Source: Octopus vulgaris (Eukaryota). From it: 64,000 nt of DNA. Position numbers and translations under genes: made by a program. Below the pieces are notes generated by a model that was not told where the DNA came from, did not search any database, and worked only from the letters and a program-made list of their open reading frames with translations. This document shows positions 2,074 through 47,968 of the stretch, piece by piece (position 1 is the first letter of the stretch; the number at the start of each line of letters is the position of its first letter). The stretch is from positions 153,016,001-153,080,000 of the forward strand of contig OX597816.1 in the NCBI GenBank assembly GCA_951406725.2, in the 5' to 3' direction.

Positions 2074-2590
2074 ACTAAACGAATTGAAGGCATGACTGAT
2101 CTCGATTATTGGGACCGCCTTAAAGCCTTGAAACTCTACTTTCTCCAGCGCCACCGCGAGCGGTACATTATTTGAACGATGTGGAGAGTATACCGCCAGC
2201 ATTGCCCAAACGACCTGAACATTAGTTTCAAGGTTCATCCAAGGCTGGGACCACGGGCCATACGTCCCCTGCCCAATTCAGGATCACAGCATATAGGTAC
2301 ACTGCGACATAATTTCTTTTCCTCAACAGGCCCTGCCCTGTTTAACATTATCCCGAAAGAGATCAAAGAGGGAAAGGATCCCATCGCCTTTAAACGGAGT
2401 CTGGACAGATTTCTTCAAGGTATACCGGATAAGCCACCCATACCTGGATACAACTCAATTAACAAGAACTCACTACTTGAATGGACCATAAACAAAACTT
2501 GACTTAAACAGGATTTAGATAATCCTATCAGGTGGTGCTATTAAGTTAGACATGACCTGGACCAATCTTTGGTCGAAACATATCTAAGTT
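2074..2590 (+). mobile_element. 5'-truncated CR1-group LINE 3' end (ORF2 C-terminus and 3' UTR)
   Basis: KRIEGMTDLDYWDRLKALKLY.LQRHRERYII, an in-frame stop, then ...GPALFNIIPKEIKE...FKRSLDRFLQGIPDKPPIPGY...NSLLEW, a typical CR1-type ORF2 end. Confidence 0.85.
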
Positions 2591-2601
2591 TATGTGTGTG
2601 T

Positions 2602-2632
<31 letters not shown>

Positions 2633-2647
2633 ACTGTATGCAAAGCA

Positions 2648-2729
2648 GTCATCGTGGCCGAGTGTTTAAGGCGATGGACTAGAAATCCATTGGGGTCTCC
2701 ACACGTAGGTTCGAATCCTACCGATGACG
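2648..2729 (+). tRNA. tRNA-Ser(AGA), possibly impaired variant or pseudogene
   Basis: 82 nt. Acceptor GTCATCG/CGATGAC plus discriminator G, anticodon arm ATGGA-CTAGAAA-TCCAT, long variable arm, T arm GTAGG-TTCGAAT-CCTAC, followed by TTTT terminator. D-loop has GT instead of the invariant GG. Confidence 0.9.
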
Positions 2730-4059
2730 CTTTTCTTTTTATAAAGCGTGCCCCAGAAGGGCCGCGGTCTAGTGACTGAAAGTAATGGATAAAATTATAT
2801 ATTTGTGTGCGTATATGTGTAAGCCACACAAATTATTCACAGTACTCTACCTGTTTTATTTATGCTGAATGAATTATTCATTCTCTTCTACATCACTCTA
2901 TTTCTCGCTTTCTCTTTCTCTGTGTATGTGTGTGTGTTTGTGACTTTATCTCTGTGAGTGGGTGAGAGTAAAGCATTGTCACCCCTTCCAAAAGATGTGT
3001 TCCAAACACCCACCCACCCACATAAAACCACTTTTTTACATTCCGTCCCGAAAACCTGGGAACTCGTATATATTAGTCACACGAAAGGTTCAAAAAGTCC
3101 AAAACAGAATGATAATGGGTTTTTTTTTAATTTTAATTTTTTTATTTTTACTTCATGGTGGTAATTTCTAAATTAAAATTTAAAAACATTTCATCAAAGG
3201 TATTCTGGCACGCCTATTTAAAACAAAATACAAAGCGAACAGTTTTCACGATTTTCGTACAAACTAACGACGTAAGTTGTTAGAATCGTGGGAAATACAG
3301 ATTAAATATCCATTATATAAAATTAATTGCTATCCTCTCCATTCTCAGTTCAAATCCCACCGAAAATGGCACTGCGTTTAATCACTCTTATGATTTCTCA
3401 TAGGGATGGCCCATAAATAGCATCACCAAAACTGTATCTCAATGACCAGACTTATACATGAACTGTAAAAATTACAGTTTCAGTTAGATGCTATTCCTAT
3501 ACAAAGCTCAAGTTAAATTCACATTAACCAAGGCGATGCCTTTGCTACACATACACAGACAACTAACTAATACTGTATGCAGAATAAGATCATCTTACTG
3601 ATACTGAGTCACCAAAAGCTCTCTGCTCTTAGTTAAAATCCCAATACCGTTGACAATGCATATGTTCATTCATCATCAGCTACAACCATTGGCTTCTTCC
3701 AGAATAACAACGGCCTCTGCTCTTCTGAACCAGCGAATTCAACAGCTCTTCTTACCCAGGTACACCTACTTTTCTATAGCTCAACTGTGTCTATGCTCCC
3801 AAATTAAAACTAAACGCATTCTTCTAATCTCTTCTAATGACTCGAGTGTGTTATGAACTCACATTATTCTCTCGTACTTCACTTCTACCTTCAGCTGACC
3901 GCGTGACCATTTGGCCTTAGCGTATTAACATTAATCACTTTTCTCTATATCTTCCTCTTTTCTTTCTTCACTCCTCTCTCTCTCACTCTTACTCCACCTC
4001 TCACTCACTCCACCCCCACCTCTCTAACTAACTAATGAATAACGGGCGAACGAACCAGC

Positions 4060-4260
4060 AGATTATTATATAGATATCTATTTTAACTCGTTTTCCCCAG
4101 CCAATTGGACTGCTAATAGTGTACCCATTTCGATAAATGACAGCCTCCTCAGTCGAAATTCTGACCACAAGAGGTATGCATATTAAGTGTGTACAGGTTC
4201 GCTTCATCATCGTATTTGGTTGGTGCACGATATAACTGACGATCGTTTTGTTTACTTGAA
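4060..4260. repeat. About 200-bp segment, inverted copy of 1861-2061
   Basis: Direct comparison of the two copies. Confidence 0.9.
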
Positions 4261-4587
4261 ATGTTGATTTCTAATATAATACAACGACTCTAGATAAAAA
4301 GTTAACCGACCCTCGATTAAATTAAATTATAGCTTTTTCCGCAACAACTTCTTGTTGTGGACACCATTTTGGTACTGAACAATGATTCTTTAAGTTTCAG
4401 TGGGTGGAACCCGTCTTGTTTATTTGTTGTTGATTTAATCATTTATTTATTAAATGAAAGAAAAAGGAGATTTGTTAATAGGTTATGCGAATGCGTGTGG
4501 GGGTTAAAAAAAGGTCTCCAACCACAAACGTATAAAAGATGATTTATTATTAAATCATCTTTTATACAGCACAACTGGGAGGGTCTT

Positions 4588-4661
<74 letters not shown>

Positions 4662-4687
4662 CATACATACATACATACATACATACA

Positions 4688-4718
<31 letters not shown>

Positions 4719-4720
4719 GT
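4588..4720. repeat. (TA)n/(TACA)n microsatellite
   Basis: Visible simple repeat. Confidence 0.95.
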
Positions 4721-4946
4721 GAGTGTGTGTATTCTAAAACTAAATTGTTTGTTTTGAAGACGTTGTAGTTAAATAAACAGTAGAAAATTGCTCTCATTCA
4801 GAATTGATAGTGCTGTCGAAGGTAAGAAAGGGTATGTGTACGTAGGAGAGAGAATTGGATTGAAAGAGAGATTGCGTATAATTTGTAAGAATGATTTAGT
4901 GTCATTCGTAAGAGAAAACGGGGAGATAAAGCTAGAAAAAAAAGGA

Positions 4947-4978
<32 letters not shown>

Positions 4979-5406
4979 AGGAAAGAAAGAAAGAAAGAAA
5001 AAGAGGTAATGCGCTGGAATGAATGGGCAAATGAGATTGTAACGATGTTAGAAATATGTATGAAAGAAACAAACAAAAAGAGAAATGGAAAAGACAGAAG
5101 TGGAGAATTACTGTTTGGGAGAAGAAATGTGGATATATGTATGTGTGCCAGTTGCGAGTTTGTGGGGTGGGGGAAGAATATAAAAAACAAAAAGAAACGT
5201 ATATTGAAGTGGATTGAAGAACATGGAAGGACAGACTGACAAAGAGATGGGAGGAACAACGAAAAACGAATAAGGAGAGTGATATATAGACTAAGAAATA
5301 GGCTTTGATTGTAGGTATAACTTATATTGGTTACATTGTGAATGTTGGTCTGGACTTATACATTTTTCATGCAGAAGGCACCCCCGAGAAATGTTCTAGT
5401 CCCCGG

Positions 5407-8420: not shown

Positions 8421-9749
8421 CTACGCTGATCTCACCTCTCTCAAGTGGAAGATGGGGTGTAAAAAGCTTTAGGCAACGATTACACAAGCCAACAATGAAG
8501 CCTCTACACACTATAAATTGTAGCAGTTCTGAATACTTTACCTAAAAATATGATAGGATGGTCGTGGGTGGAACTCCCTGATCATAGATCTGCTTAATAA
8601 GAACTAATATGAGGGTAAACAAAAACTGTAAGTAACTAGAATATTGTAGAGTTAAAGAATGGTTCAGAAGTTTGCGACGCTAGAACCAAGTTAACCTGCA
8701 TTGGAGGCACTTACCATAGCTTTCAATAAGAAATCCAGTTTTCGTTGTTGTAAGGGAAATAACTGGAATAAAAAATCTTGGCTTATGTCCCTTGAAGCAT
8801 TATTGCCGAGAAAAGAAATATACGAGTCAAAATTTAGAATGCCGATCTGAAATGACAAAAATTAGTCAATAAAATTTTCTGAATTCACTATAGCCACATT
8901 TAAATCTGAATTGTATTCAGTTTTGTGAAGTAAAATACCAGAATTGACCTAATAAGCTGCTATTCCATACATAACAAAATTTTTTCCTTCATTACTTTCT
9001 AATAACAACATTCGTGCAGGAGTATATCATATTATGCTATACCATTGCATGCATTTCTTTCTCCTTATAAAATTTACAAATTTAGTAATAGTTGTTTTTA
9101 ATTTAGACATAAGGCCAGCAATTCTGAGGTTACGGGGCAAGTCGATACCGCTGATTCGAGTACATGACGGGTACTAATTTCCTCGTCCCTCTGGAGTTCC
9201 TGAAAGGCAAATTTAAGCTCGGTATGATTCAAACTCAGAAGATAAGAGAGTCCGAATAAATGCTGTGAAATTTTTCTTTCTTTTCGTTTTCGTTTTCGTT
9301 TTCTTTTTTTTTATATCCTGATAATTCTGCCAACATTACTAACATCATGTATTAGTTTGAATTATAATAATACACTGTAAAATCCTACAAGTTTTTAAAC
9401 TTTCTACTTCCTTCAGGATGAAGTATTTTCTTTATTGCATCTGTTCAACAAATGCTTTCGAAAACAAATTTCTGTTAAATAAAGACATTCATCAATATCA
9501 ATTTATTTGCGTGGTTAATTATATTTCAATGCAGTACCACAATTACTTCCCTTTAATACTCACGGGAGGTAAGTATTGCGGAATTATTAAAAAAGTTATT
9601 CTTTTATCATCATTGTAACGGCATAACCTTAATAATAACTTCATAAACTCTGATCATGTTGCTTGAGATACACCAACACATTATATTTCTATCATTTTTC
9701 TATTTTCGTCTAAATACAAAAAGCAAATATATATATATATATATATAGC

Positions 9750-10075
9750 AATAATAAATCTCTGAACGAGATGTAGACAGTAACCGCTCGACAACGTAAA
9801 GTATACTAGCCATCTCAATATGGCTAACCACTAACAACGTAAAGTATACTAACCACTCAATATGGCTAACCACTGGGTGTTACTGTAGCTTTTAGCCCCA
9901 GGAGATCATCGTCTCCAGCTGGCTTTAGGCACACTTTCTGTGCCCTTATGGTATTTGCAAAGGGAGGTCATCCCTCTTTCGTAGACCAAAGCGATACGCA
10001 CGGACTGCAGTTTCGAGGTAATTTGTCTCTTGTCAACGTAAGGTAATCACCGGTTTACGATGAAAGGAAGACCTG
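9750..10075 (-). mobile_element. Retrozyme-like unit (diverged relative of the 25861-27103 array)
   Basis: Contains an HHR-like fold and blocks shared with the array unit (aatatggc, ttagc.cc..gag..catcg, aagggaggtca); internal tandem duplication of about 42 bp at 9791-9873. Confidence 0.7.
9979..10060 (-). ncRNA. Extended type-I hammerhead ribozyme, U3:A8 core variant (two stem mismatches)
   Basis: GGUGAU-UAC-CUUACG-UUGACAA-GAGA-CAAAUUA-CCUC-GAAA-CUGCAG-UC^CGUGCG-U-AUCGCU. Confidence 0.7.
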
Positions 10076-10193
10076 TTTGCAAATACCTATGGGTTTTTCT
10101 AGTAACTTCCGTCACGTTTATATATACGTTTATGAATTTGTGTTGCCTGATGTGAAACCGTGTATTGAAACAGTTGAAACAGATGCATTTTTT

Positions 10194-10546
10194 GTTTTGC
10201 TAAATAAACACACACACTATATATTTGTTCCTCACTCGTTTATTACTGTTCTTATTCTAACTCATGTCTAATTGTCCGGAAATCTTTCGCTACACATCTG
10301 TGACCTCTTTAGCGACACTTTCCGTCTCCGTATGTACTCTTGCTCCGCTTATTCCATTCTCTTGTGACTCTGTGAGAATGGAATAAGCTCAACAAGAGCA
10401 CACACGAAGGCGGAAAGTGTCGGTGAAGAGGTCACAGATGTGTAGCGAAAGATTTCCAGACAATGGACATGTGTTAGAATAAGAACAGTAATAAACGAGT
10501 GAATAACGAATATATAGAGCGTGTGTTTATTTAGCAAAAAGAAATG
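10194..10546. repeat. Fold-back inverted repeat (arms about 170 bp, 12-nt loop) with degenerate HHR-like motif
   Basis: 10194-10361 is the reverse complement of 10374-10546. Confidence 0.85.
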
Positions 10547-11551: not shown

Positions 11552-12482
11552 GTGAAGGTGGATGGTTTAGTGGTTTTGATGTTGTACTCACAATTGCGAG
11601 ACCGTGGGTTCGATTCCCAGACCGGGCGTTGCGTTGTGATCTTCAGCAAAGCACTTCATTTCACGTTGCTCTGCGATCGTTTTGTCATCTGGGATCTTTC
11701 ACTTTTGAACGGCAGATGTTAACACAATTTCTAGTTAACTAAACACTTTTAAACTTCGTATACTGGTAGAATGTGTTTATAAAACATCATTTTCTCTTGG
11801 TTTTATTGAGAAAATTCTATAGTTTGTAAGATATTTCGTCTGAAAATCCGAGCATTTCGGCAATTTTAACCAATCGATTACCTCCATTCAACTAAAATCA
11901 TTTGCTGCGTCTAAAACTGAGACAACATCCTGTCTAAACCTCCCCCCTAACCCTAACCCTTTTTTTTTTTTCTTAATTGTTATGCATGTAAAAAAAACTA
12001 AAGCAATGGAATTAAATTAATTTAACAATTAAGAAAAAAAAATTTAGGGTTAGGGTTAGGGTTAGCAGGGAGGTTTAGGGTTAGTTACAGGACGTTGTCT
12101 CAGTTTTAGACGCAGCAAATGATTTTAGCTCAAAAGAGCGCATAGGATTGGTTAAAATTCGAAAAATCAAACTACGTTAAACAAACAAATTACAATTTTC
12201 TCAAGAAAGCCAAGAGAAAAAATGTTTTATTTTGACACATTCTACCAGTATACGAAGTTTTAAAGTGTTTAGTTAACTAGAAATTGTCTGCCGTTCAAAA
12301 GGAAAAGATCCGTCATCTGACTTATGGAACATGGCGCACCTGTACAGGTAATGTCGATTTGATGGAGTGGGTAAGTTTAAGTGAACACAAACATTCGATC
12401 ACTATATACAAATCCCCTGTGTTTCCGTTAAGCAAGAAATTGTCGAACCCCCATACGTCGTCTAACGACGGGAGAGTCCATT
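11552..12482 (+). mobile_element. tRNA-derived SINE split by a MITE insertion
   Basis: Head tggtttagtgg...ggttcgattccc at 11552-11691; the body resumes after the TSD at 12312. Confidence 0.75.
11692..12311. mobile_element. Non-autonomous TIR element (Merlin-like MITE) with internal telomeric repeats
   Basis: GGATCTTT...AAAGATCC termini, imperfect TIRs of about 270 bp, exact 8-bp TSD gtcatctg (11684-11691 and 12312-12319). GG ends with an 8-bp TSD match the Merlin superfamily. Confidence 0.8.
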
Positions 12483-16860: not shown

Positions 16861-17513
16861 CAACTTTTCTTTTTCCGTTATGTTTATAGTAAACTTTAAT
16901 GTATATCATTTTGTATTTTATGTTGTAATACATATACAGGTCTAAAGGGGAATTTCCTTGTTATTCTATGTGTGAAGCTTTTAAACTGTTTATTAATAAT
17001 TTTATTTTTGTGATTTACGAAATTACTCTCTTTATATTTAACTTTGTGTGTATTCTTGTAATTCTAATTTGATATGCAACACAAAGCAAAAGCAATTCTA
17101 ACCGATGTTTTATTCCGTAAAGGTTCTGTGATGGAGAACTTTTCTTATTCTATAGACTGGCGTTCTGATGAAAAGATATCCACTTCACACGCGCGTGAAC
17201 ATATATCAGAGTTGACCAGGAAAGAAACAATTGTCAATTCAACTCAATAGTGTTACGGGGAAAGCAGCTTGAACTGAAACGGCATATTTGATTAGAGAAA
17301 TGCGTTGAACGAAAACCTCTTTTTCTTCGGTACAAACTTTCAACTTACTAGCTTCGATTATATGGACTTTAAAGAGTGCTACTTAGGTGTGTGATCGACA
17401 ACCGACAACTGAAAGTAAGAGCATTCATTAGTTTATACAGTTCTATATTTAAGAGATGAGGTATTATGTACATTATTTACATTTGATGGCTATTTGTCCT
17501 CAGCTTGTTTGTT

Positions 17514-17559
17514 AACACAACATTTCGGCTGATATACCCTCCAGCCTTCATCAGGTGTC
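17514..17559 (-). ncRNA. Minimal type-I hammerhead motif (inverted copy)
   Basis: GACAC-CUGAUGA-A-GGCUG..CAGCC-GAAA-UG-UU^GUGUU. Confidence 0.6.
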
Positions 17560-17620
17560 TTGGGGAAATTTCGAACCTGGGTTCTCATTCCTAAGGTATG
17601 TTTCGATATTATTATTATTA

Positions 17621-17657
<37 letters not shown>

Positions 17658-17819
17658 GCCAGTGGGCATATGGTGTAATGGTTAAGAGCGCGGGCTACTA
17701 ACCCCAAGATTCCACGTTCGATTCCAGGCAGTGACCTGATTATTAATAATAATTATAACAACAACAACAACATCGAAAAATACCTTAGGAATGAGAACCC
17801 AGGTTCAAAATTTCCCCCT

Positions 17820-17865
17820 GACACCTGATGAAGGCTGGAGGGTATATCAGCCGAAACGTTGGGTT
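17820..17865 (+). ncRNA. Minimal type-I hammerhead motif
   Basis: GACAC-CUGAUGA-A-GGCUG-gagggUaUaU-CAGCC-GAAA-CG-UU^GGGUU (one stem I mismatch). Confidence 0.6.
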
Positions 17866-20049
17866 AATAACACAAGATGAGGACAAATATCCGTCAACTG
17901 TAAATAATGTGCATTCATTAGCTTATTGTGAAATTTGGATGCACCAACACTTTGTAACGGTACAAATCTAGCTGTCAAAACTTAAATGGGTGCTGTTATG
18001 TCGTGTGATCTACAAATTAAAGGGAGATTACTTTAGGTTACTTTTTAGTTTACTTTTCAGTTTCTAAAATTCCTGAAGATGTTGAAAGCCATAGACTGTA
18101 CATTATTTTCAATGAAAATCAGTGTTTGATTGTTCGTGACAAAGGTAATTTATAGGTGTTATCATATTTTTTACTCCTGAAATGCTTGATATATGTCTTC
18201 TGTAATATTGTCTTGATGATTATGCTAAGATTACTTAGAATTCGATGATGAACAGATACATAGAAGAGATTGTCTTCTTGTTTCAAACCTCTACCAAATA
18301 TACTCCAAACTGCGTCATCAAAGAAACATCTCTGGGGAATTTTGTGATATGTTGTGCAAATATAGCAAACAATACTTTTAAGATCCTGGCACGTGATTGG
18401 ACCATGGATATTGTATAGGAACTCTTTGAAATTTAAAAAGGTAATTCAAACTCATCATTTAACAATTAGATCTCAAAAAAATTAGTATGTGGTTTCAAAT
18501 ACTAAGAAAGATAAGATAATGTTTCTCATTTAAATTTGTTTATTTTGCTTTCAGAACATGTTTTCTATAAGTACACTTCCAGAATCTGTAACAATAACTG
18601 TGAGACAATTATATATCACACAGAATATTTAGACAGTATGTTTACTGGGATACTATCATAATTAAAATCCCTCACGAACAAAGAAGTAAAAATAAAAGTC
18701 TTTAAGAAGTTCAAACGCAGTTTCAAATGTCATGGAAGAAAAAAAATTTGTTGTTTCATATTTAATCTAGTTTATATTTCATAGAGATTTGAACTTCAAC
18801 CGTATGATATTCAGTTAGAGATTACGAGTGATCCACCACAGTTTTACGTGATTGATGTATAAACCAACTAATCAACATGAAGCTATGGCATGATATAGCT
18901 CCTCAGATTATCTAAAATTCACTCCCTTTTCACCCTATAAAAGCTGTTTGGCGCTTAACTCACTCAGACAACTTCGAGAGACTGTTATGATCTGACGGCC
19001 CTGGACATTTGCGTTGGCCACTTTAGGCACTAGACCAAACCATATCGGGCACTCGGACAGACTACCTTGAGCAAGAAACAACTTCGGGTACTGACACACA
19101 ATGTACAACAGCTAGCTTTCTACTAGACTCAGCACGGTTCTCTCCTCCCAGTCGATGGTTATATTATCAACATCTTTCTTTTGTAAAGAGCCAATGCAGT
19201 GAATCATCTCCAGCAATAAATATATAAAGCTAGAAGTTCATGAGTTTGCTTTTTTATAATATCTGCTGCCAGCTAGACCACACTACGATGGTGTTCAATA
19301 ATACAACACGCAACCAACAAGCAGCCATCACAACAGTACTAAAGCATTCGGGTATTATGCTCTATGAACCTGACTGTTAATTTGTATAAAATTTAAAATA
19401 TATGCAATCATTATAAAAGCAAAACTTAACAGTTCAGTTTATAGCATAATGCATGAACATTTTAGAAATATAAACTATTTTGAATATGAAACAATGAAAG
19501 AATAATTATTGTTATCTATACACAGGTGTGTGTGTGTAAAGGCCTTGAACCTTATGCTAACAGGCAAGTAGATATGAGAATATTTTCGTCGAAATTTCAG
19601 ACCATTTACAATAACTATTGTTCTGTTTATGACTTAACAACAGCAGTCTATCTTCTGCTTAAATAATTTATCATTATATTGTTAAGGAAATGTTTTGAAT
19701 GGCTACAAGATATATAGGGTACTGTATAACAGCATTTTTAAAAATTTCTAATCAGTACCTGTTAACACCATGTTAGATGTAAGATCCAGCAGAACAGGGA
19801 CGTAATTTTATGATATTTGTTAACTGAAGGAATATGAGTGAACGAAAGTGTTACTGTTAATGTATTTGTTTAGCCCCACAAGCCTGAATTGCGCATACCT
19901 ATGATGAAACAAGAGATCTTTGGTTTTAAGTGCATATATCCGCAGAATTTATAAGTAAGCCAAAGCAATTCAAAGAAAGATACAAAAATAGGTTTTGGTA
20001 TCCCGAATAAGTGAAACGAATTTGTAAATACTCAAAAGTTACTTATTAA

Positions 20050-22249: not shown

Positions 22250-22440
22250 AAAGGAAAACCTGAAAGTACTTAGTGTTGATGAAGAGCAATAACCCTGGAA
22301 CTAGTCCATAAATGTTGCTTTGTGCTGAGCAGGGATGCTGAATTCACGGTTCGAAAATATAAGGACACAGATAATGTGTTGTATAGCCAGCTAGAAACGA
22401 TGTTTCTTGGGGTTAATAAACAGGACAGCCATATTGTTGG
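22250..22440 (+). mobile_element. Decayed third member of the hammerhead/retrozyme-like family
   Basis: UAC-UUAGUG-UUGAUGA-AGAG-CAAUAA-CCCU-GGAA-CUAG-UC^CAUAAA plus the homologous downstream module. Confidence 0.6.
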
Positions 22441-24769
22441 CAATTAAATCCTACCTGAAAGTGCACATTCTCAGGAAATGTTCTGAATCTTCTACACTTT
22501 CGGTCCTCAAAATGCACAAGGACAAATATATTTGTGAGTTATTAACATCACGCCAAAGGAATGAATAAAATGAGAGGGGAATTTCATCATATTTACACAA
22601 AAATGTTCAATTAAATATTCTTTTCTCTTTTTTTATTTTCCTCTTTTTCTTTCTTTTTCTTTTTGCTAGTTGCAAAATTGGAAATTGAAGACTGATGATG
22701 CCATTCCGTCAAAGTGGGATCGCAGGATTTCCTCATTCAAACTTTTGAATTTGAATTTCTGTATTCATTTTTACATTTTGAACTTGAATAAGACAGGCAA
22801 GCTGTGGAAATATCGTTCAAATCAATAAACAAACTATTTAAATCGCACTGCACTCTTTGTATTTTCTATTTACCTTCACAAAGAGTATGTCAATATTTTT
22901 AAAATTTTTAAATGATGATAATAATAATAATAATAATAATAATAATATATTGATGATAATTATGATGATGATGATGAAAACTGGAAGCCTTTAACTGAAG
23001 AGAAACTTAAATTCATATATTTCCATTTAATGACATTTAGTAAGTGACCTTTAAGTGTTTACATATTCGTTTCGTTTACTTGACATATCTGAGGCTATTT
23101 TTTACATTTTTTACTCTTGTTTTCATTCCATTTTCAGTTAGCAGATTTATGTACTTAGAACCAACGATTGTCAAGAAAGACATACCAGCGTTTTATTATT
23201 CAAAATTTTTTTTAATTATTTTTTTTATTTCGATCACATCCATGTCTGTTTCCATAGTAACAAGCCGAACATCAGAACTCTTTTGTCTGCAAGAAAGCAC
23301 GTGTTGACAAATATATTGAAACCACTTGTTGACGCTGTGTTCTATTATGTTTATCGCATGAAATGCATATCGAATGCTTAAATTTTTTTTTTTAATATTT
23401 ACTTTGTAATGTGCTGTTTATTGCATTAAATGCATATTGAATGCTTAAAATTACAAAAGACATGTTGTTTATTCATTTTCCGTGTGCAGAATACAAATTG
23501 ACAACATGAGCTATTTTCAGGATGTTGACAAAGTGTGCTGTCATGCACCAAATGACACATTCAGATTGTGTTTGCTGAATGGGTGAAAATGATCAAACTT
23601 TAAACCCCTATAACTTTTTTTTTTTAAATTCTGGAAAAAGTACTCCAGCAATTCAGCTCGGAAAACTACATTAATCTATCAAATTTTTAAATTTTCGATT
23701 AACTTTAATTTTTGAAACCTTGGCAGCCAAACAGAAAAGATCCTTTCATTTCCATGCTTCAATTCAGTGATCTGTATTAAATGTGTCTTTCTAATTTTGA
23801 AGAAGCATGATGTGATAGTAGAGAAATTCAATTGCCATTTCTAACAATCGATTGATTTCACAGAGTAGAAGCTCTCTCATTACCTCAAGGTATCTATTTC
23901 CTGTTTTCCAAGTTGTGTCACGGTGACATTGCGAGTTGTATGAACCATTAAAATAGAGCATCCAATTAAATTGCAAGTGCAAACAAATATACCAGTCGGT
24001 TGGTCGCTGGGAAAGTAGTATTGATGGAATATAGACCAATCGGTTGGTCCGTCAGTAGGTAGGTAGGTCGGTAGGTAGAGGGCCGTGAAGCAAGAGGTTC
24101 AGCTAATATAATAGTTTAGGGTGCGAAAAGCCAAGGAAAGACCTTTGAATTAGGAAAAAGGGAGGAGGAGAGAGGGGAGGAGGAGAAGAAGAAAAAGAAA
24201 ATCACCGACAAAACCATTGAATTTTGAATTGATCCTCCCTCTATCCCCATCGGGGTAGACTGAAAGTAAATCTTGCTCATCCTTGCAAAAGTTCTCTTGG
24301 AGATTCTGAATCAGATAGACTGGATTGGGTGTAAAGGTGGAAGAATACATGTTCCAAGTCCAAGAGGATCTGGTTACACTTTGCTCAGCAAGATGAGTCA
24401 TTACAGCCAGCAAAAGCCACTATGAGCATTGGGCAGTTGGCACCATCCTGGCCACCTCAGCCTGAGTAGGGTAGTGTGCAGGAAATTTCATCTGAGTGGA
24501 GGAAATGTGAACAAAAGGCGCTACTCTACTTAATAACATCTACAAGTTTGCCAGCCTGCAACTGTAGTCAGTATTGGCCACAATCCTCAAAAATATGACA
24601 GCCCAACTAGAGCAACAGCCTCAGTCCCCAGCAGTTCACATGTCAACAGCTATAAGAACGGTTATGCCCAATGAGAAAGCAGTGAGTTGCTATAAGTCTT
24701 TGGTTTTGAATAGACCCTCTCTGTAACTTTCATCACCTGCAAGATCTTCTGGTATGTAAGCAATATTAC

Positions 24770-25380
24770 CGTTGAAACTACTGTCAGTCAGAGCCTAGTT
24801 GCAGTAAGAGGCAGCAGCATCAAAAATCTCTTTGCTTGAAGACAAGCTGGAGATTCTTCTGCTGACGTCCTTAACTAGGTTCCTGGACACTATGGCTGGG
24901 TGGCAGGAACCTGTGTTAATGTAAGACAACTTCTCATATGGTTTCCTAAAGGGCCTATAGGCACCTGATTCCAGGTCTAGGGTCACATCAAGGAAATCTT
25001 CCATTTTCAGGTTGGTCTCTATAGTGACCTTCAGTCCAAAGGAGTTCATGGTGCTCGTTAGGTCCTTTCTGTGTCTATCTAGTGTGTGGCCATTAGCCCC
25101 TCTTGATATTGCCTGCACGTCGTCCCCATAGAGGCCAAAGCTAGTTGAAAGGAATTTCTTTTTTTGTATATCTAGGGTGAAGAAACTGACTAGGTCAGTT
25201 AAATTCACAATGTCAAAAGCATTCATTGCCCCATGTCAAAGGAGCCTCCTAGCCCGGTGCATTTGGTCCAAAGAGACCCCTTATTGAAGAGTAGGGTTCT
25301 TCTGGCATGTATGATAATGTGCGTGTCCTTGTTGACTTCAGTACGGGCCCTAGTGAAGTTCAGTGGCTTTTAGAGGAGAT
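24770..25380 (-). pseudogene. Penelope-like element RT fossil (Naiad/Chlamys-type motifs)
   Basis: IIIHARRTLLFNKGSLWTK, SFGLYGDD (GLYRDD-type), DFLDVTLDLESGAYRPFRKP...YINTGSCHP...RRISSLSSSKEIFDAAA; frameshift and stop present. Confidence 0.85.
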
Positions 25381-25435
25381 CTCTGGATATACAGGGGTAG
25401 ATATATTTTTATTTTAAGATATTTCAGATATAAGT

Positions 25436-25860: not shown

Positions 25861-26015
25861 ATAATAGTTATCGCCATACTAATATGGCATTCTTATAAAA
25901 ATAAGAAAAAAGCTGTCCGCTTATTAGCTCCATGAGGCCATCGCCTTAAGTTAGCTATTTGATACACAAACTGTATCCATATAACCTTCGAACAAGGGAG
26001 GTCAGTCGCTCCACA

Positions 26016-26086
26016 CTACTTGACCGGCAGCTACAGACGCGTTTCAGGGTATTGCCCCTTTTCAATGCAGCGTAGCCAGCCAGTAG
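26016..26086 (-). ncRNA. Extended type-I hammerhead ribozyme, U3:A8 variant
   Basis: Reverse complement of 26475-26545. Confidence 0.8.
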
Positions 26087-26474
26087 GTGTCGCTTCCGAC
26101 AATCTCTGTTCGATGGTTTTATTTACCTAGTTTCGGTGGAATACATCCACTTGTTTTCAATAATAGAAATATTAAAATAACTAAGTCTCTCTAAAAGAGA
26201 ACAGCGGCAGCGTTCCGGAAAATAATAGTTATTGCCATACTAATATGGCATTCTTATAAAAATAAGAAAAAAGCTGTCCGCTTATTAGCTCCATGAGGCC
26301 ATCGCCTTAAGTTAGCTATTTGATACACAAACTGTATCCATATAACCTTCGAACAAGGGAGGTCAGTCGCTCCACACTACTTGACCGGCAGCTACAGACG
26401 CGTTTCAGGGTATTGCCCTTTTTACCGAAACTAGGTAAATAAAACCATCGAACAGAGATTGTCGGAAGCGACAC

Positions 26475-26545
26475 CTACTGGCTGGCTACGCTGCATTGAA
26501 AAGGGGCAATACCCTGAAACGCGTCTGTAGCTGCCGGTCAAGTAG
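26475..26545 (+). ncRNA. Extended type-I hammerhead ribozyme, U3:A8 variant
   Basis: CUACU-GGCUGGC-UAC-GCUGCA-UUGAAAA-GGGG-CAAUA-CCCU-GAAA-CGCG-UC^UGUAGC-U-GCCGGUC-A-AGUAG; predicted cleavage after 26525. Confidence 0.8.
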
Positions 26546-26836
26546 TGTGGAGCGACTGACCTCCCTTGTTCGAAGGTTATATGGATACAGTTTGTGTATC
26601 AAATAGCTAACTTAAGGCGATGGCCTCATGGAGCTAATAAGCGGACAGCTTTTTTCTTATTTTTATAAGAATGCCATATTAGTATGGCGATAACTATTAT
26701 TTTCCGGGAACGCTGCCGCTGTTCTCTTTTAGAGAGACTTAGTTATTTTAATATTTCTATTATTGAAAACAAGTGGATGTATTCCACCGAAACTAGGTAA
26801 ATAAAACCATCGAACAGAGATTGTCGGAAGCGACAC

Positions 26837-26907
26837 CTACTGGCTGGCTACGCTGCATTGAAAAGGGGCAATACCCTGAAACGCGTCTGTAGCTGCCGGT
26901 CAAGTAG
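26837..26907 (+). ncRNA. Extended type-I hammerhead ribozyme, U3:A8 variant
   Basis: Identical motif 362 nt downstream; predicted cleavage after 26887. Confidence 0.8.
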
Positions 26908-27094
26908 TGTGGAGCGACTGACTCCTTGTTCGAAGGTTATATGGATACAGTTTGTGTATCAAATAGCTAATATCATGGAGCTAATAGCGGACAGCTTTTT
27001 CTTATTTTTATAAGAATGCCATATTAGTATGGCGTAATATTATTTTCCGGGAACGCTGCCGCTGTTCTCTTTTAGAGAGACTTAGTTATTTTAA

Positions 27095-27141
<47 letters not shown>

Positions 27142-28017: not shown

Positions 28018-29294
28018 CACAGACATGCAGGAAGTAAATAGACACCTTTAATTTTCAAAATCTTTTATTTAATATGCAAAGTGAACAATTGAAATGTAAT
28101 TGATAGGTAGGACTACATACATTAGTATTTAGTTGACTTTCCCTTTGCAGTTTTTAATTCAGAAACTCTTTTTGGGATAGAATTGATGAGCTTTGTAATT
28201 GTCTCTTTTGGAATTTCTGCCCACTTTTCATGCAACAATCGAAACAATTCATCTTTAGATTTAGGTTTCTGTTGAGTTTTTCATATAGCTCTATCTAGTA
28301 TACTCCAAAGATTTTCAATTGGGTTAATGTCAGGAGATTGGCTCGGCCAAGGAAGCCTTTTGATCCTATTTTCAGTCAACAATTGTTGATTCCTTTTCAC
28401 TGTGTGGCATGGAGCCCCACCTTCCATGAATAAAATCTTATTTCTCATTATGTTATCGTGTGAATACATTGGAAGCAGTCCTTGCTTAAGTATTTCGATG
28501 TATTTTTCAGAGTTTATGGTTCCAACACATTCGATCAGCTCAGAATGACCATTGCTGGTGACAGTTCCCCATACCATTACAAAGATACTGCCATGTTTCA
28601 CAGTTGGTTGGTGTTGTTTCAAATCAAATTCTTGATTGGGAAGCCTCCAGACCCAAACATGTCCACTGTCTGAAAATAATGCAAATCTGGATAATTCTGA
28701 GAAAATTGCTCCAACTCAAAATGAACTGGATTTTTCTGACATCTCCTCAGCCCATTTCTTTCTTTTCATGATATTAATTGGTTGAAGGAGAGGTTTTCTT
28801 CTAGCTGCTCGTCCATAATACCCAAGCTTATGCAGATAAATAACACATGTTCTTGGACTAACTTCTATCTGTTTTGCAATGTCAGCAGCCTTCGAACAAG
28901 GTTCATTTTCCACAATTCTCTTCAAACAGTGTAGCTTCCTTTCCGAGGGCCCAGGTTAGCCAGGACGAGAATCTGTTGATTCTTTTCCCTGGCTTTTGAA
29001 TTGCACTATAATTCTATTAACAGTAGCAAGAGGAATTTGATGATTTTCGGCAATTTTTCGCTGGCTAAGACCAGCCTCAGATTGCCCAACAATATGACCT
29101 CTTTGAAAATCCGACAGTTCTGCTGAATTTTTTGAGCATGGCATGGTTACTCTTCGCAAATATTTAATATAATGGCACCTGGAATGAAAAAGAATAATTA
29201 CATTGTTAATTCTATACTGCTGAAAACATATTAAGATGCTTAGATCAGAAATTTTGAAAATTAAAGGTGTCTATTTACTTCCTGCATGTCTGTG
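28018..29294 (-). mobile_element. Full-length, defective Tc1-family transposon
   Basis: TIRs of about 43 bp (cacagacatgcaggaagtaaatagacacctttaattttcaaaat) with TA TSD. Frameshifted transposase [20 protein letters not shown]...ARRKPLL...VMVWG...WPSQSPDINPIENLW; the first two catalytic Asp positions appear mutated. Confidence 0.92.
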
Positions 29295-35451: not shown

Positions 35452-35719
35452 AGGCATATGGCGTAAGTGATTAAGAGCACTGGCTACTAACCACAAGATT
35501 CCGAGTTCGATTCCAAGCAATGACCTGAATAATAATGATAATAATAATCATATCAAAAAATACCTTAGGAATGAGAACCCAGGTTCGAAATTTTCCCAAG
35601 ACACCTGATGAAGGCTGGAGGGTATATCAGCTGAAATGTCGTGTTAACAACAAACAAGATGACAAATATCCATCAAATGTAAATAATGTACCTAATTCCT
35701 CATCTCTTAAATATAGAAC
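35452..35719 (+). mobile_element. Second copy of the tRNA-headed hammerhead SINE
   Basis: A box tggcgtaagtg, B box gagttcgattcc, (AAT)n, then a tail colinear with 17770-17910. HHR at 35600-35645: GACAC-CUGAUGA-A..GAAA-UG-UC^GUGUU. Confidence 0.8.
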
Positions 35720-36314: not shown

Positions 36315-36363
36315 CATTTCCACAAGGATGACACGCAAATTCTTGAAGCGTTCCATATTTTCT

Positions 36364-46370: not shown

Positions 46371-47083
46371 GTAAGTGTCTTCTGTATATGTATGTGTGTG
46401 TGTGATTACATGGGCCGTTGTGTAACTCTACTTGTCAGCAACATAATCACATCTGAACAGGATTGCGCAAATCTTTCCTCTGTGTATGTGTTGGTTTTGT
46501 GTAGTGTATTTGTGTTTGTGGAGATTCTGTAAGTGCATATATGTTTGGAGGGACTGTATGACTGATTGTAGCAGATCTGTGTATTACTGTGTCTATGGAA
46601 GTGTGTGTTTATGTTTTTGGAGGTTTTGTGTGTGACTGTGTCTGAGGAAGGGTGCATTTTGTCTGTTGAGGGTGTAACTGTATGTGATTGTCTGGGGAAC
46701 TTGTGTAGCTTTCACTCTTCTCTAAAGTAAATTTATTATTGACTAACTGAACTCTACAAATATGTTCTCAAATACTTATGTGTTATACAGTTATATATTA
46801 TTTTTTTTTCTTCTGTCTTGTTACCAAATGCAGTATCCTTGAATTTGGATTCAGTTCCTTCTAATTCTTCCTTTACCTATGGTTGTAAGTCAGATCTTTT
46901 CTTGTAATGGCAGAGATTTCGAATGAAAGGTGTCAAACATTTTAACTAACATGAAACAGTAATAAACTAAATTACTAAATTTACCTACCTCACCTTCCAA
47001 AATTAGCTATATGCCAAAAAAATCACTATCACTATGATTTTATTCTTTCTCTAATTTTCTCTATTTTTAAAAATATTTTTCAG

Positions 47084-47621
47084 ACTTTGAAAAGACTTTC
47101 CTTGACTTACCCTGGCAAGATGTCTTATGGAAGCAAGTGCTACCATATCTCAGCATCAAAGATCTCTTCTCTTTGCGCTTGGTTAATTCTCATTGTAAAA
47201 GACTAGCTGAAGGTTATTTCAGCTCACTAAAACAACTAGATATATCTACCGTCTCAGATCAAATCACTTTGACAGCCTTCAACATTATCATAGAAAATAC
47301 TCAGAATTTGACATCACTCAATCTCAAGAATTGCACTCAGTGTGCCTGTGAAGACACTCTTGTTTACCTCATTGAACGTAACCCCCGTCTTTCAAAAGTT
47401 TCCTTCAAGAATTGCAATGCCCTCTCTGACTGTGTGTTGCTGACACTGTCCACCACATGTCTTCACCTCACACATTTGAACCTCTCCCATTGTACATGGT
47501 TACACAATGTTGGGCTGGTGACAATAGCCTTTAAATGTCACTCACTGAAATATCTCAATATCAGTTCCTGTTTCAATATTACTGATGAAAGTATTCGAAT
47601 TTTGGTTTTCAACTGTCACAA
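47084..47621 (+). CDS. FBXL15: F-box/LRR-repeat protein 15-like, exon 2 (F-box and cysteine-containing LRRs)
   Basis: FLDLPWQDVLWKQVLPYLSIKDLFSLRLVN matches the FBXL15 LDLPWEDVL motif; LxxLxLxxC repeats; tttttcag acceptor and gttagt donor. Confidence 0.9.
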
Positions 47622-47968
47622 GTTAGTAATTTTTTTTTCACTCTTCTTTTCTGTCTCTTTTTCTCACTCACTTTTCTGTCTCTATTTTCTCATCATCATC
47701 ATCACATCTAAGGGTGGTGGGTGGACTTGTGAGTGTATCAAACAAAATGCCTCGGGTATTTCATCCAATTCTTTAATGTTCTGAGCTTTAATGTTCAGGG
47801 AACTGTCAACAAAGAACACTTTGTAGCTCAATGCTGTCTTCCATGCAAAGTGCTGAATGTTGATTTTATATATATATATAAAGTAACTATATGAAAGCAT
47901 TATTGCTGTTAAAAACTGTAATAATGAGGCAGTTAGCAAGACTTCTACCTTAATAAGTATAATATTAA

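Follow-up and report, generated by a model that had tools for sequence, protein, structure and literature searches.

Non-coding retroelements that carry hammerhead ribozymes have been described in animals as non-LTR retrozymes. According to Cervera and de la Pena (2020, PMC7229834), these are tandem units of 170-400 nt (350-390 bp in mussels) with a canonical type I hammerhead, a weak helix III, and a predicted circle that leaves the ribozyme fold free. The main text of that study presents no cephalopod family; the giant squid genome paper reports 235 Rfam hammerhead-1 loci, which it only counts. For the movement of animal retrozymes, Penelope-like partners have been proposed from co-occurrence and from likeness to pseudo-LTRs (pLTRs), as in the vertebrate study of Li, Clavereau and Pollet (2026, bioRxiv 10.64898/2026.07.22.740005), in which monomer, dimer, and multimer copies coexist and whose sampling, as described there, includes no mollusc class.

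Penelope-like elements insert as tandem and inverted 5'-truncated copies with a one-sided tail, and for the Hydra clade among them both hammerheads and (TA)n targets are reported (bioRxiv 2021.04.23.441226). The tail is ascribed to two internal starts of reverse transcription (PMC11167929). In Schistosoma, the minimal hammerheads of the Cercyon elements (Cervera and de la Pena 2014, PMC4209133) lie in pLTRs and have a long helix II, a short helix I, and an extra base after A9. They are many-copy, Penelope-tied, and built for dimer cleavage, and ~1,300 minimal motifs of Schistosoma Penelope-like elements, all in a single animal genome, carry U3-A8 in place of the usual C3:G8. Several natural U3-A8 hammerheads were described as rare instances by Perreault et al. 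(2011, PMC3088659), the pair being active in vitro, and an unpaired C3·A8 core did not cleave (PMC8490949). U3:A8 is, thus, already known in nature.

The locus considered here lies near 10 kb of the window, the whole 64-kb stretch of Octopus vulgaris DNA that was analysed (Table 1). It carries a U3:A8 hammerhead motif from a family with a covarying fold, and a sister subfamily at 26 kb forms a tandem, inverted, and tailed insertion. The 10-kb locus is a solo, lightly decayed copy of a multi-copy, non-coding unit of ~350 nt, probably a retrozyme, that would spread by paired self-cleavage, release of rod-clasped and perhaps circularised monomers, and Penelope-like mobilisation into (TA)n. The element would work like a metazoan non-LTR retrozyme, and it is not a new ribozyme class. 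The non-coding tandem unit, the canonical type I hammerhead, the weak helix III, and the predicted circle with a free ribozyme fold all have counterparts in PMC7229834. It differs from the retrozymes of that study in its U3:A8 core, the ~50-bp rod on stem I, and the covarying 3' module, and it is known here from DNA alone. With the Cercyon motifs it has in common U3-A8, many copies, a putative Penelope tie, and a construction apparently suited to dimer cleavage. Unlike them, it has the canonical 6-bp/4-bp geometry, a stem I bulge, and an ORF-less tandem unit. Schistosoma Sm-alpha (PMC6155905) also has helices of 6 bp and 4 bp but a C3:G8 core and unrelated flanks. As in Li et al. (2026), Penelope-like parentage is proposed and copies of different multiplicity coexist; here, however, the evidence lies in the way the copies are inserted, with inversion, a tail on one side, and a TA target, and a pLTR homologue was looked for and not found.

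Table 1. Coordinates of the probable octopus retrozyme copies and associated features (window positions)
Feature	Position	Strand	Remarks
Solo element, subfamily B, about one monomer	9749..10117	minus	(TA)n end; collinear with the 26-kb monomer; 5' boundary approximate (10108-10117)
Type I hammerhead, U3:A8 core	9990-10051	minus	
Distal stem I	GGUGAU 10051-10046 with AUCGCU 9995-9990	minus	
UAC bulge, stem I 5' strand	10045-10043	minus	
Proximal stem I	CUUACG 10042-10037 with CGUGCG 10002-9997	minus	5/6 paired
Stem I 5' strand overall	10037..10051	minus	two 6-nt segments (distal, proximal) around the UAC bulge; private mismatch 10041
Stem I 3' strand	9990..10002	minus	proximal 6 nt, bulged U, distal 6 nt
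Core UUGACAA (U3-U4-G5-A6-C7-A8-A9)	10036-10030	minus	
Stem II GAGA/CCUC (4 bp) and loop II CAAAUUA	10015..10029	minus	3/4 paired; private mismatch 10026
GAAA (G12-A13-A14-A15.1)	10014-10011	minus	
Stem III palindrome ACUGCAGU	10011-10004	minus	
GUC site (U16.1-C17)	block 10003..10014	minus	predicted cut 10003/10002
Rod 5' arm extending stem I	10052..10087	minus	
Rod 3' arm	9950..9987	minus	private mismatches 9984, 9978; 11-nt motif common to 26-kb element
3' module hairpin A, 6 bp	9928..9944	minus	helix 5: 100% paired, 2 pairs changed on both sides, three subfamilies
3' module hairpin B	9894..9924	minus	outer stem of 4 bp and inner stem of 5 bp with a conserved internal loop between them; CGAUG loop invariant
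Local 43-nt tandem duplication with GCCAUAUU..AUGGC hairpin	9791..9874	minus	hairpin also in 26-kb element
(TA)n run at element 3' end	9727..9748		likely insertion target
Subfamily C homologue, decayed	22256..22450	plus	same layout; core UUGAUGA (U3·G8) 22276-22282; GGAA replaces GAAA; palindrome ACUAGU
Hydra-like short C-terminal-endonuclease Penelope-like reverse transcriptase relic	24708..25408	minus	candidate kind of mobiliser
Subfamily A array	25861..27103		(TA)n on both sides
Inverted 5'-truncated dimer, subfamily A	26423-25861		adjacent to monomer; starts at monomer position 76
362-nt monomer, subfamily A	26424-26785	plus	
Tandem copy, subfamily A	onward to 27103	plus	
Subfamily A U3:A8 hammerheads (position of U3)	26065; 26496; 26858	minus; plus; plus	

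The original prediction was made from the letters of this locus, and every element that it listed (stems, bulge, core, loop II, GAAA, palindrome, and GUC site) is present on the minus strand. A type I descriptor applied to both strands of the window gives four matches, all of them U3:A8; three lie in the 26-kb array, and the fourth is the 10-kb copy. The chance expectation, taken from 60 Markov-shuffled windows, was 0.03 matches per window, none palindromic. The motif has a three-way junction, an open stem I, and the conserved U4, G5, A6, A9, G12, A13, A14, A15.1-U16.1, and H17. With 6 bp in helix I, 4 bp in helix II, and a short palindromic helix III, its geometry is that of the canonical (extended) metazoan type I (cf. 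PMC4209133). The minimal Penelope traits (an extra base after A9, a helix II of 7-8 bp, a short helix I) are absent. The UAC bulge and the loop letters C-A-A-U..A, which would take part in a putative tertiary contact of stem I with loop II, are invariant among the three homologues in the window, and the type I hammerhead of Sm-alpha likewise has a stem I bulge facing an A-rich loop II. Rfam returned no hammerhead at the 10-kb or 26-kb site at E<=10, nor in the whole window at E<=1, a result ascribed to the models and not to a defect of the motif.

Membership of a family, and the state of the 10-kb copy within it, can be judged from public contigs. Those of four runs (of 24 listed) were aligned on 9880-10230 at 80% likeness to the 10-kb copy, which makes relatives with other cores and stems invisible. 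Three DNA or probable-DNA runs with three organism labels gave 2153, 1837, and 1087 aligned contigs; the fourth (X14), only guessed to be RNA, gave 6 and was excluded as evidence of transcription. Each majority letter is carried by 18-69 contigs per run in the three runs, a figure that is not a copy number, and the 10-kb element belongs to a multi-copy family. The majority of depth departs from the 10-kb copy at the same six positions in all three runs. It repairs stem I at 10041 (pairing letter in 98-99% of depth), stem II at 10026 (82-92%), and the rod at 9984 and 9978, turns a U·G into a U-A pair at 9992, and differs in the bulge at 9988. Four of the five mismatches are mended in this way, including both in the hammerhead stems, U3 and A8 are unchanged, and the modelled pairs formed rise from 48 to 52 of 53. 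None of the 13 core positions has a variant at 8% or more, and the core UUGACAA has none above this threshold in any of the four runs.

These results bear out the two stem mismatches and the probable decay noted in the original prediction: since the majority letters restore stems I and II, the 10-kb copy is decayed, and G5, A6, G12, and A13, the letters on which the prediction staked itself together with this pairing, are free of variants at 8% or more. With both hammerhead stems broken and no second copy to pair with, it is likely to be inactive. The predicted extent, 9750..10075, contains the motif but falls short of the element, which runs to ~10110-10117, and it was overlooked that stem I is extended by a rod and that 9750-9945 is a conserved structured module common to the 10-kb and 26-kb elements.

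Some positions vary within the family. At position 11.1 (10015), A accounts for 16-62% of depth; the 10.1-11.1 pair would be broken by it, unless the contigs concerned also differ in the 5' strand. Rod pairs are broken by minority variants at 10057 (27-46%), 9983 (17-27%), 9974 (2-32%), 9985, 10071, and 10077. Because the alignment of several contigs ends near 10019, the rod-breaking and 11.1 variants may come from sister subfamilies. The summed depth of the 3' part (9904-9951) is 18-69 times that of the hammerhead part, depth being no copy number; truncated 5' ends would fit this, as would many sister subfamilies whose ribozymes have diverged. Loose contig ends before 9913 show a sister subfamily whose hairpin B has a different inner stem and a different loop. 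That the depth profile marks the cleavage site was considered and rejected, since the step lies near 10019 and not at 10003. No pile-up of ends is seen among the aligned contigs, which as assembled sequences would not reveal RNA ends.

The hammerhead caps a rod of ~50 bp, of which ~35 pairs lie beyond stem I and reach 10087/9950. Its fold has a z of -5.5 in the 10-kb copy (0/200 shuffles), and likewise -5.5 in the 26-kb copy. The minimum-energy fold of the 10-kb copy forms the rod and the distal stem and misfolds the junction, as expected from the mismatches of this copy; that of the 26-kb copy forms stems I and II. Neither site has an ORF of at least 100 aa. Near the approximate 5' boundary of the 10-kb element, contig depth falls from 8,749 to 2,722 and 1,737 over 10096-10131 (run X1).

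The 10-kb and 26-kb elements align collinearly over a ~350-nt unit. Homology is found 3' of the ribozyme (z 6.9 global and 8.2 local, 0/1000 shuffles); between the two subfamilies, A and B, it was not detected in the 5' rod arms (z 0.2-1.1). What the original prediction took for a second family is, thus, not independent, the 10-kb and 26-kb elements being distant sister subfamilies, and an independent origin of the two is rejected on this homology outside the ribozyme. A search with the 3' query found the third homologue, at 22.25-22.45 kb, with a score of 100.9 (next 69.6, median 40.5). Across the three homologues, 91.9% of cells are paired, and 16 of 33 pairs are changed on both sides, six of these in the two 3' hairpins outside the ribozyme; in helices 6-7 of hairpin B the ratio is 4/9. 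Shuffles give 5.6 such pairs (0/500 reach the observed number) and slid controls 1-4. With three sequences and a structure derived from the same three, these numbers lean upward, and the slid controls still lie far below them. Hammerhead stems are identical at 12-14 of 32 letters, and unpaired hammerhead letters at 17-19 of 22-23. The 16 double-sided changes against 5.6 in shuffles show that the fold was selected, as had been proposed from stems that differ in sequence and agree in geometry. A covariance model of the three copies, run on the window, retrieved the training loci and array repeats only, the next match having 13 bits.

Selection of the U3:A8 pair itself does not follow from this covariation, contrary to the original prediction. 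The 3:8 pair is U3:A8 in both subfamilies A and B and a U3·G8 wobble in the decayed subfamily C, with the usual C3:G8 in none. Because both subfamilies inherited U3:A8, stem covariation is silent on any selection of U:A over C:G, and U3:A8 is one inherited, conserved state in A and B. The U3·G8 of the 22-kb copy may be an intermediate or the product of decay. Compared with the rare instances of PMC3088659, U3:A8 is here fixed in a multi-copy family and its distant sister subfamily. At 10.1-11.1, where G-C is the usual pair, the three copies have G-C, G·U, and A-U (10015; 26503/26515; 22283/22297). Constraint thus seems to be relaxed in the octopus lineage at a further position that is normally conserved. 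A 16-nt pattern searched in metagenome contigs matched at least 119 loci; among the matches listed, similarity never extends beyond 31 nt, and they are therefore taken as chance matches. In viral contigs, a degenerate U3:A8 pattern matched 88 loci, none of which passed both stem tests.

The tandem structure of the retrozyme family rests on sister subfamily A, in which head-to-tail copies each have a hammerhead; the 10-kb copy (subfamily B) is a monomer, and no tandem copy of its own subfamily was seen. The 26-kb array stops at monomer position 277 on the left and at 337 on the right, both ends lying in (TA)n, and a tail of ~60 nt is present at the right end only, against 30-40 bp in described Penelope-like insertions. 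It thus combines a tandem and an inverted 5'-truncated copy, a tail at one end, and a microsatellite target, as in Penelope-type insertions. Of these traits, the 10-kb copy has only the (TA)n 3' end; it is one unit, and its (TA)n lies close to where the tailed end stops. The 362-nt monomer falls within the non-coding size range of 170-400 nt, and by sequence criteria the 26-kb array is a non-LTR retrozyme unit as defined in PMC7229834.

The candidate kind of mobiliser in the window is the relic at 24708-25408, which is 34-40% identical to proteins of ~700 aa with a reverse transcriptase and a C-terminal endonuclease. Its best protein relative (59% identity) lies within a gene model of Octopus bimaculoides named PH domain-containing protein. 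The relic is labelled Hydra-like from its length, the order of its domains, and its motifs; Pfam gave no name for it or for three of its relatives. With 11 Penelope-like proteins as queries, tblastn matched only 24708-25408 and nothing near 9.7-10.1 kb, and no reverse transcriptase plus GIY-YIG ORF is flanked by the 10-kb element, as an autonomous pLTR element would show. A physical link of the relic to the 26-kb array is rejected, since a SINE-like repeat and (TA)n lie in between. A Hydra-like protein search confirmed none of 78 candidate stretches in viral contigs, and one of 80 in contigs of prokaryote genomes (L208). This contig, from a bacterial metagenome-assembled genome (Leptonemataceae) and likely to be eukaryotic contamination, contains a Hydra-like Penelope element (2273-5160) that is complete, with the order pLTR-ORF-pLTR, and ends in (TA)n. 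In both pLTRs a hammerhead-like motif with C3:G8 and a long helix II was recognised by eye (near 4983 and 2497). No sequence or fold in common with the retrozyme unit was found (best 9 bits), nor was any autonomous partner of the unit.

The window is otherwise microsatellite-rich animal DNA. Penelope-type minimal hammerheads lie at 17554 (minus), 17825 (plus), and 35605 (plus), in the regions 17440-17870 and 35528-35719; they have a C3:G8 core, an extra base after A9, and an 8-bp helix II, and the first two are the two arms of an inverted pair that encloses a (TAT)n run. Adjoining the 10-kb element is a long imperfect palindrome (10195-10539, 87% identity). Read outward, each of its arms has a stretch like a degenerate hammerhead, in which a CUGAAGA box with one change is followed by GAAA. 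It is probably another Penelope-type relic, although it does not pass the relaxed descriptor. The window also contains a tRNA gene whose variable arm is long (likely tRNA-Ser; 2648-2729, plus; Rfam 61.7 bits), an inverted repeat with telomere-like (TTAGGG)n/(CCCTAA)n tracts in its arms (11924-12096), a relic of a Tc1-type DDE transposase (28281-28715, minus), a short U6 snRNA-like fragment that opens a SINE-like repeat and stays below the gathering score of Rfam (36318-36362, plus), and an F-box/LRR coding exon (47071-47784, plus).

Folding predictions bear on how such a unit might act. As a hairpin, stem III has +2.9 (10-kb copy) and +6.0 kcal/mol, against -11.1 and -7.5 as a self-duplex; the palindrome is, thus, predicted not to form within one copy but to pair between two. 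For the natural dimer 26424-26990, the double hammerhead has -203.2 kcal/mol against -188.7 for two monomeric ones (a gap of 14.5), and the unconstrained fold (-207.8) takes the double-hammerhead register. In the fold of the 26-kb monomer between the cut sites, 37 of the first 59 nt pair with the 3' end, and as a circle this monomer folds at z -7.1 (60 shuffles); the rod is predicted to pair the two ends of the excised 362-nt monomer.

In the proposed cycle, a tandem transcript of units would be made and cleaved in pairs as double hammerheads. The released monomer would be clasped by the long rod and ligated into a circle, which would be stable because a lone stem III cannot form. A Penelope-like protein would then reverse-transcribe the unit and insert it into (TA)n, the 3' hairpins perhaps offering the route for its copying. 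Self-cleavage is the likely reading of the fold, and mobilisation by a Penelope-like protein is considered just as likely from the insertion footprint. The circular RNA is slightly favoured. A role of the 3' hairpin module as a putative protein-binding signal is a tentative suggestion, and a partner from the Hydra clade is a weaker one still.

The strongest competition for this cycle comes from two other readings, both unlikely. The fold might have been kept as a scaffold for protein binding or as a protein-assisted cleaver, with no self-cleavage or circles in the cycle and with U3:A8 as tolerated drift. The ribozyme of an anole Penelope-like element needs protein, and its hammerhead mutants still inserted in vitro (PMC11167929); only one of nine Xenopus retrozyme dimers cleaved, and the other eight did not (bioRxiv 2026.07.22.740005). 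The three states of the 10.1-11.1 pair, and the third copy with U3·G8 and GGAA, also agree with such a role. However, the turnover of the stems has spared all catalytic letters, each subfamily retains a palindrome of its own, and coral and mussel retrozymes of the canonical type cleave and circularise (PMC7229834). About as improbable, or marginally more so, is that the 10-kb copy is a solo or truncated pLTR of an autonomous Penelope-like element, whose long transcript the hammerhead processes. The excess depth of the 3' module is what 5'-truncated retro-copies would give, pLTRs of Penelope-like elements carry hammerheads, with U3-A8 in Schistosoma (PMC4209133), and one 916-nt contig (run X9, record 26) departs from the element at 10019. 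Against this stand the homologous 26-kb unit, which is ORF-less and head-to-tail at 362 nt, the lack of any tblastn match beside the 10-kb copy, and a 6-bp/4-bp geometry that is canonical and not of the minimal type typical of animal pLTRs (PMC4209133).

That the motif is a chance match in an ordinary inverted-repeat (MITE-like) hairpin could be entertained in a genome rich in inverted repeats, at a site where Rfam has no hammerhead and where the own fold of the 10-kb copy misses stem II and proximal stem I. This reading is refuted by the descriptor statistics (0.03 expected matches), the repair of the stems by the family majority, and the covariation of three homologues, and is given almost no weight. 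The preferred reading, held as likely, is a retrozyme copy with paired self-cleavage and Penelope-like mobilisation.

No description of this retrozyme family was found in the literature searched, nor of U3:A8 in a retrozyme hammerhead of canonical geometry; the supplementary lists of retrozyme papers may include cephalopod cases, and supplements may contain such a core. Since searches tied to C3:G8 or to Rfam miss whole families of the canonical type, retrozyme counts may be too low. On how animal retrozymes move, the array at 26 kb is itself a source of evidence, as it bears a Penelope footprint. The three subfamilies mark the parts of the RNA that have been kept, namely the core, the palindrome, the rod, and the 3' hairpins, whose loop is invariant; these parts are direct candidates to be assayed for binding and as templates. 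It is tempting to speculate, although the odds are clearly against the full scenario, that this is an old octopus retrozyme lineage missed by Rfam and CUGANGA searches, in which the core passed from C:G through the U·G of the 22-kb copy to a fixed U:A, the 50-bp rod serves circularisation, and the two 3' hairpins are a recognition signal for a TA-targeting Penelope-like protein. If true, the lineage would provide a natural series for the evolution of the core pair and a defined cis-signal for retrozyme mobilisation in vitro.
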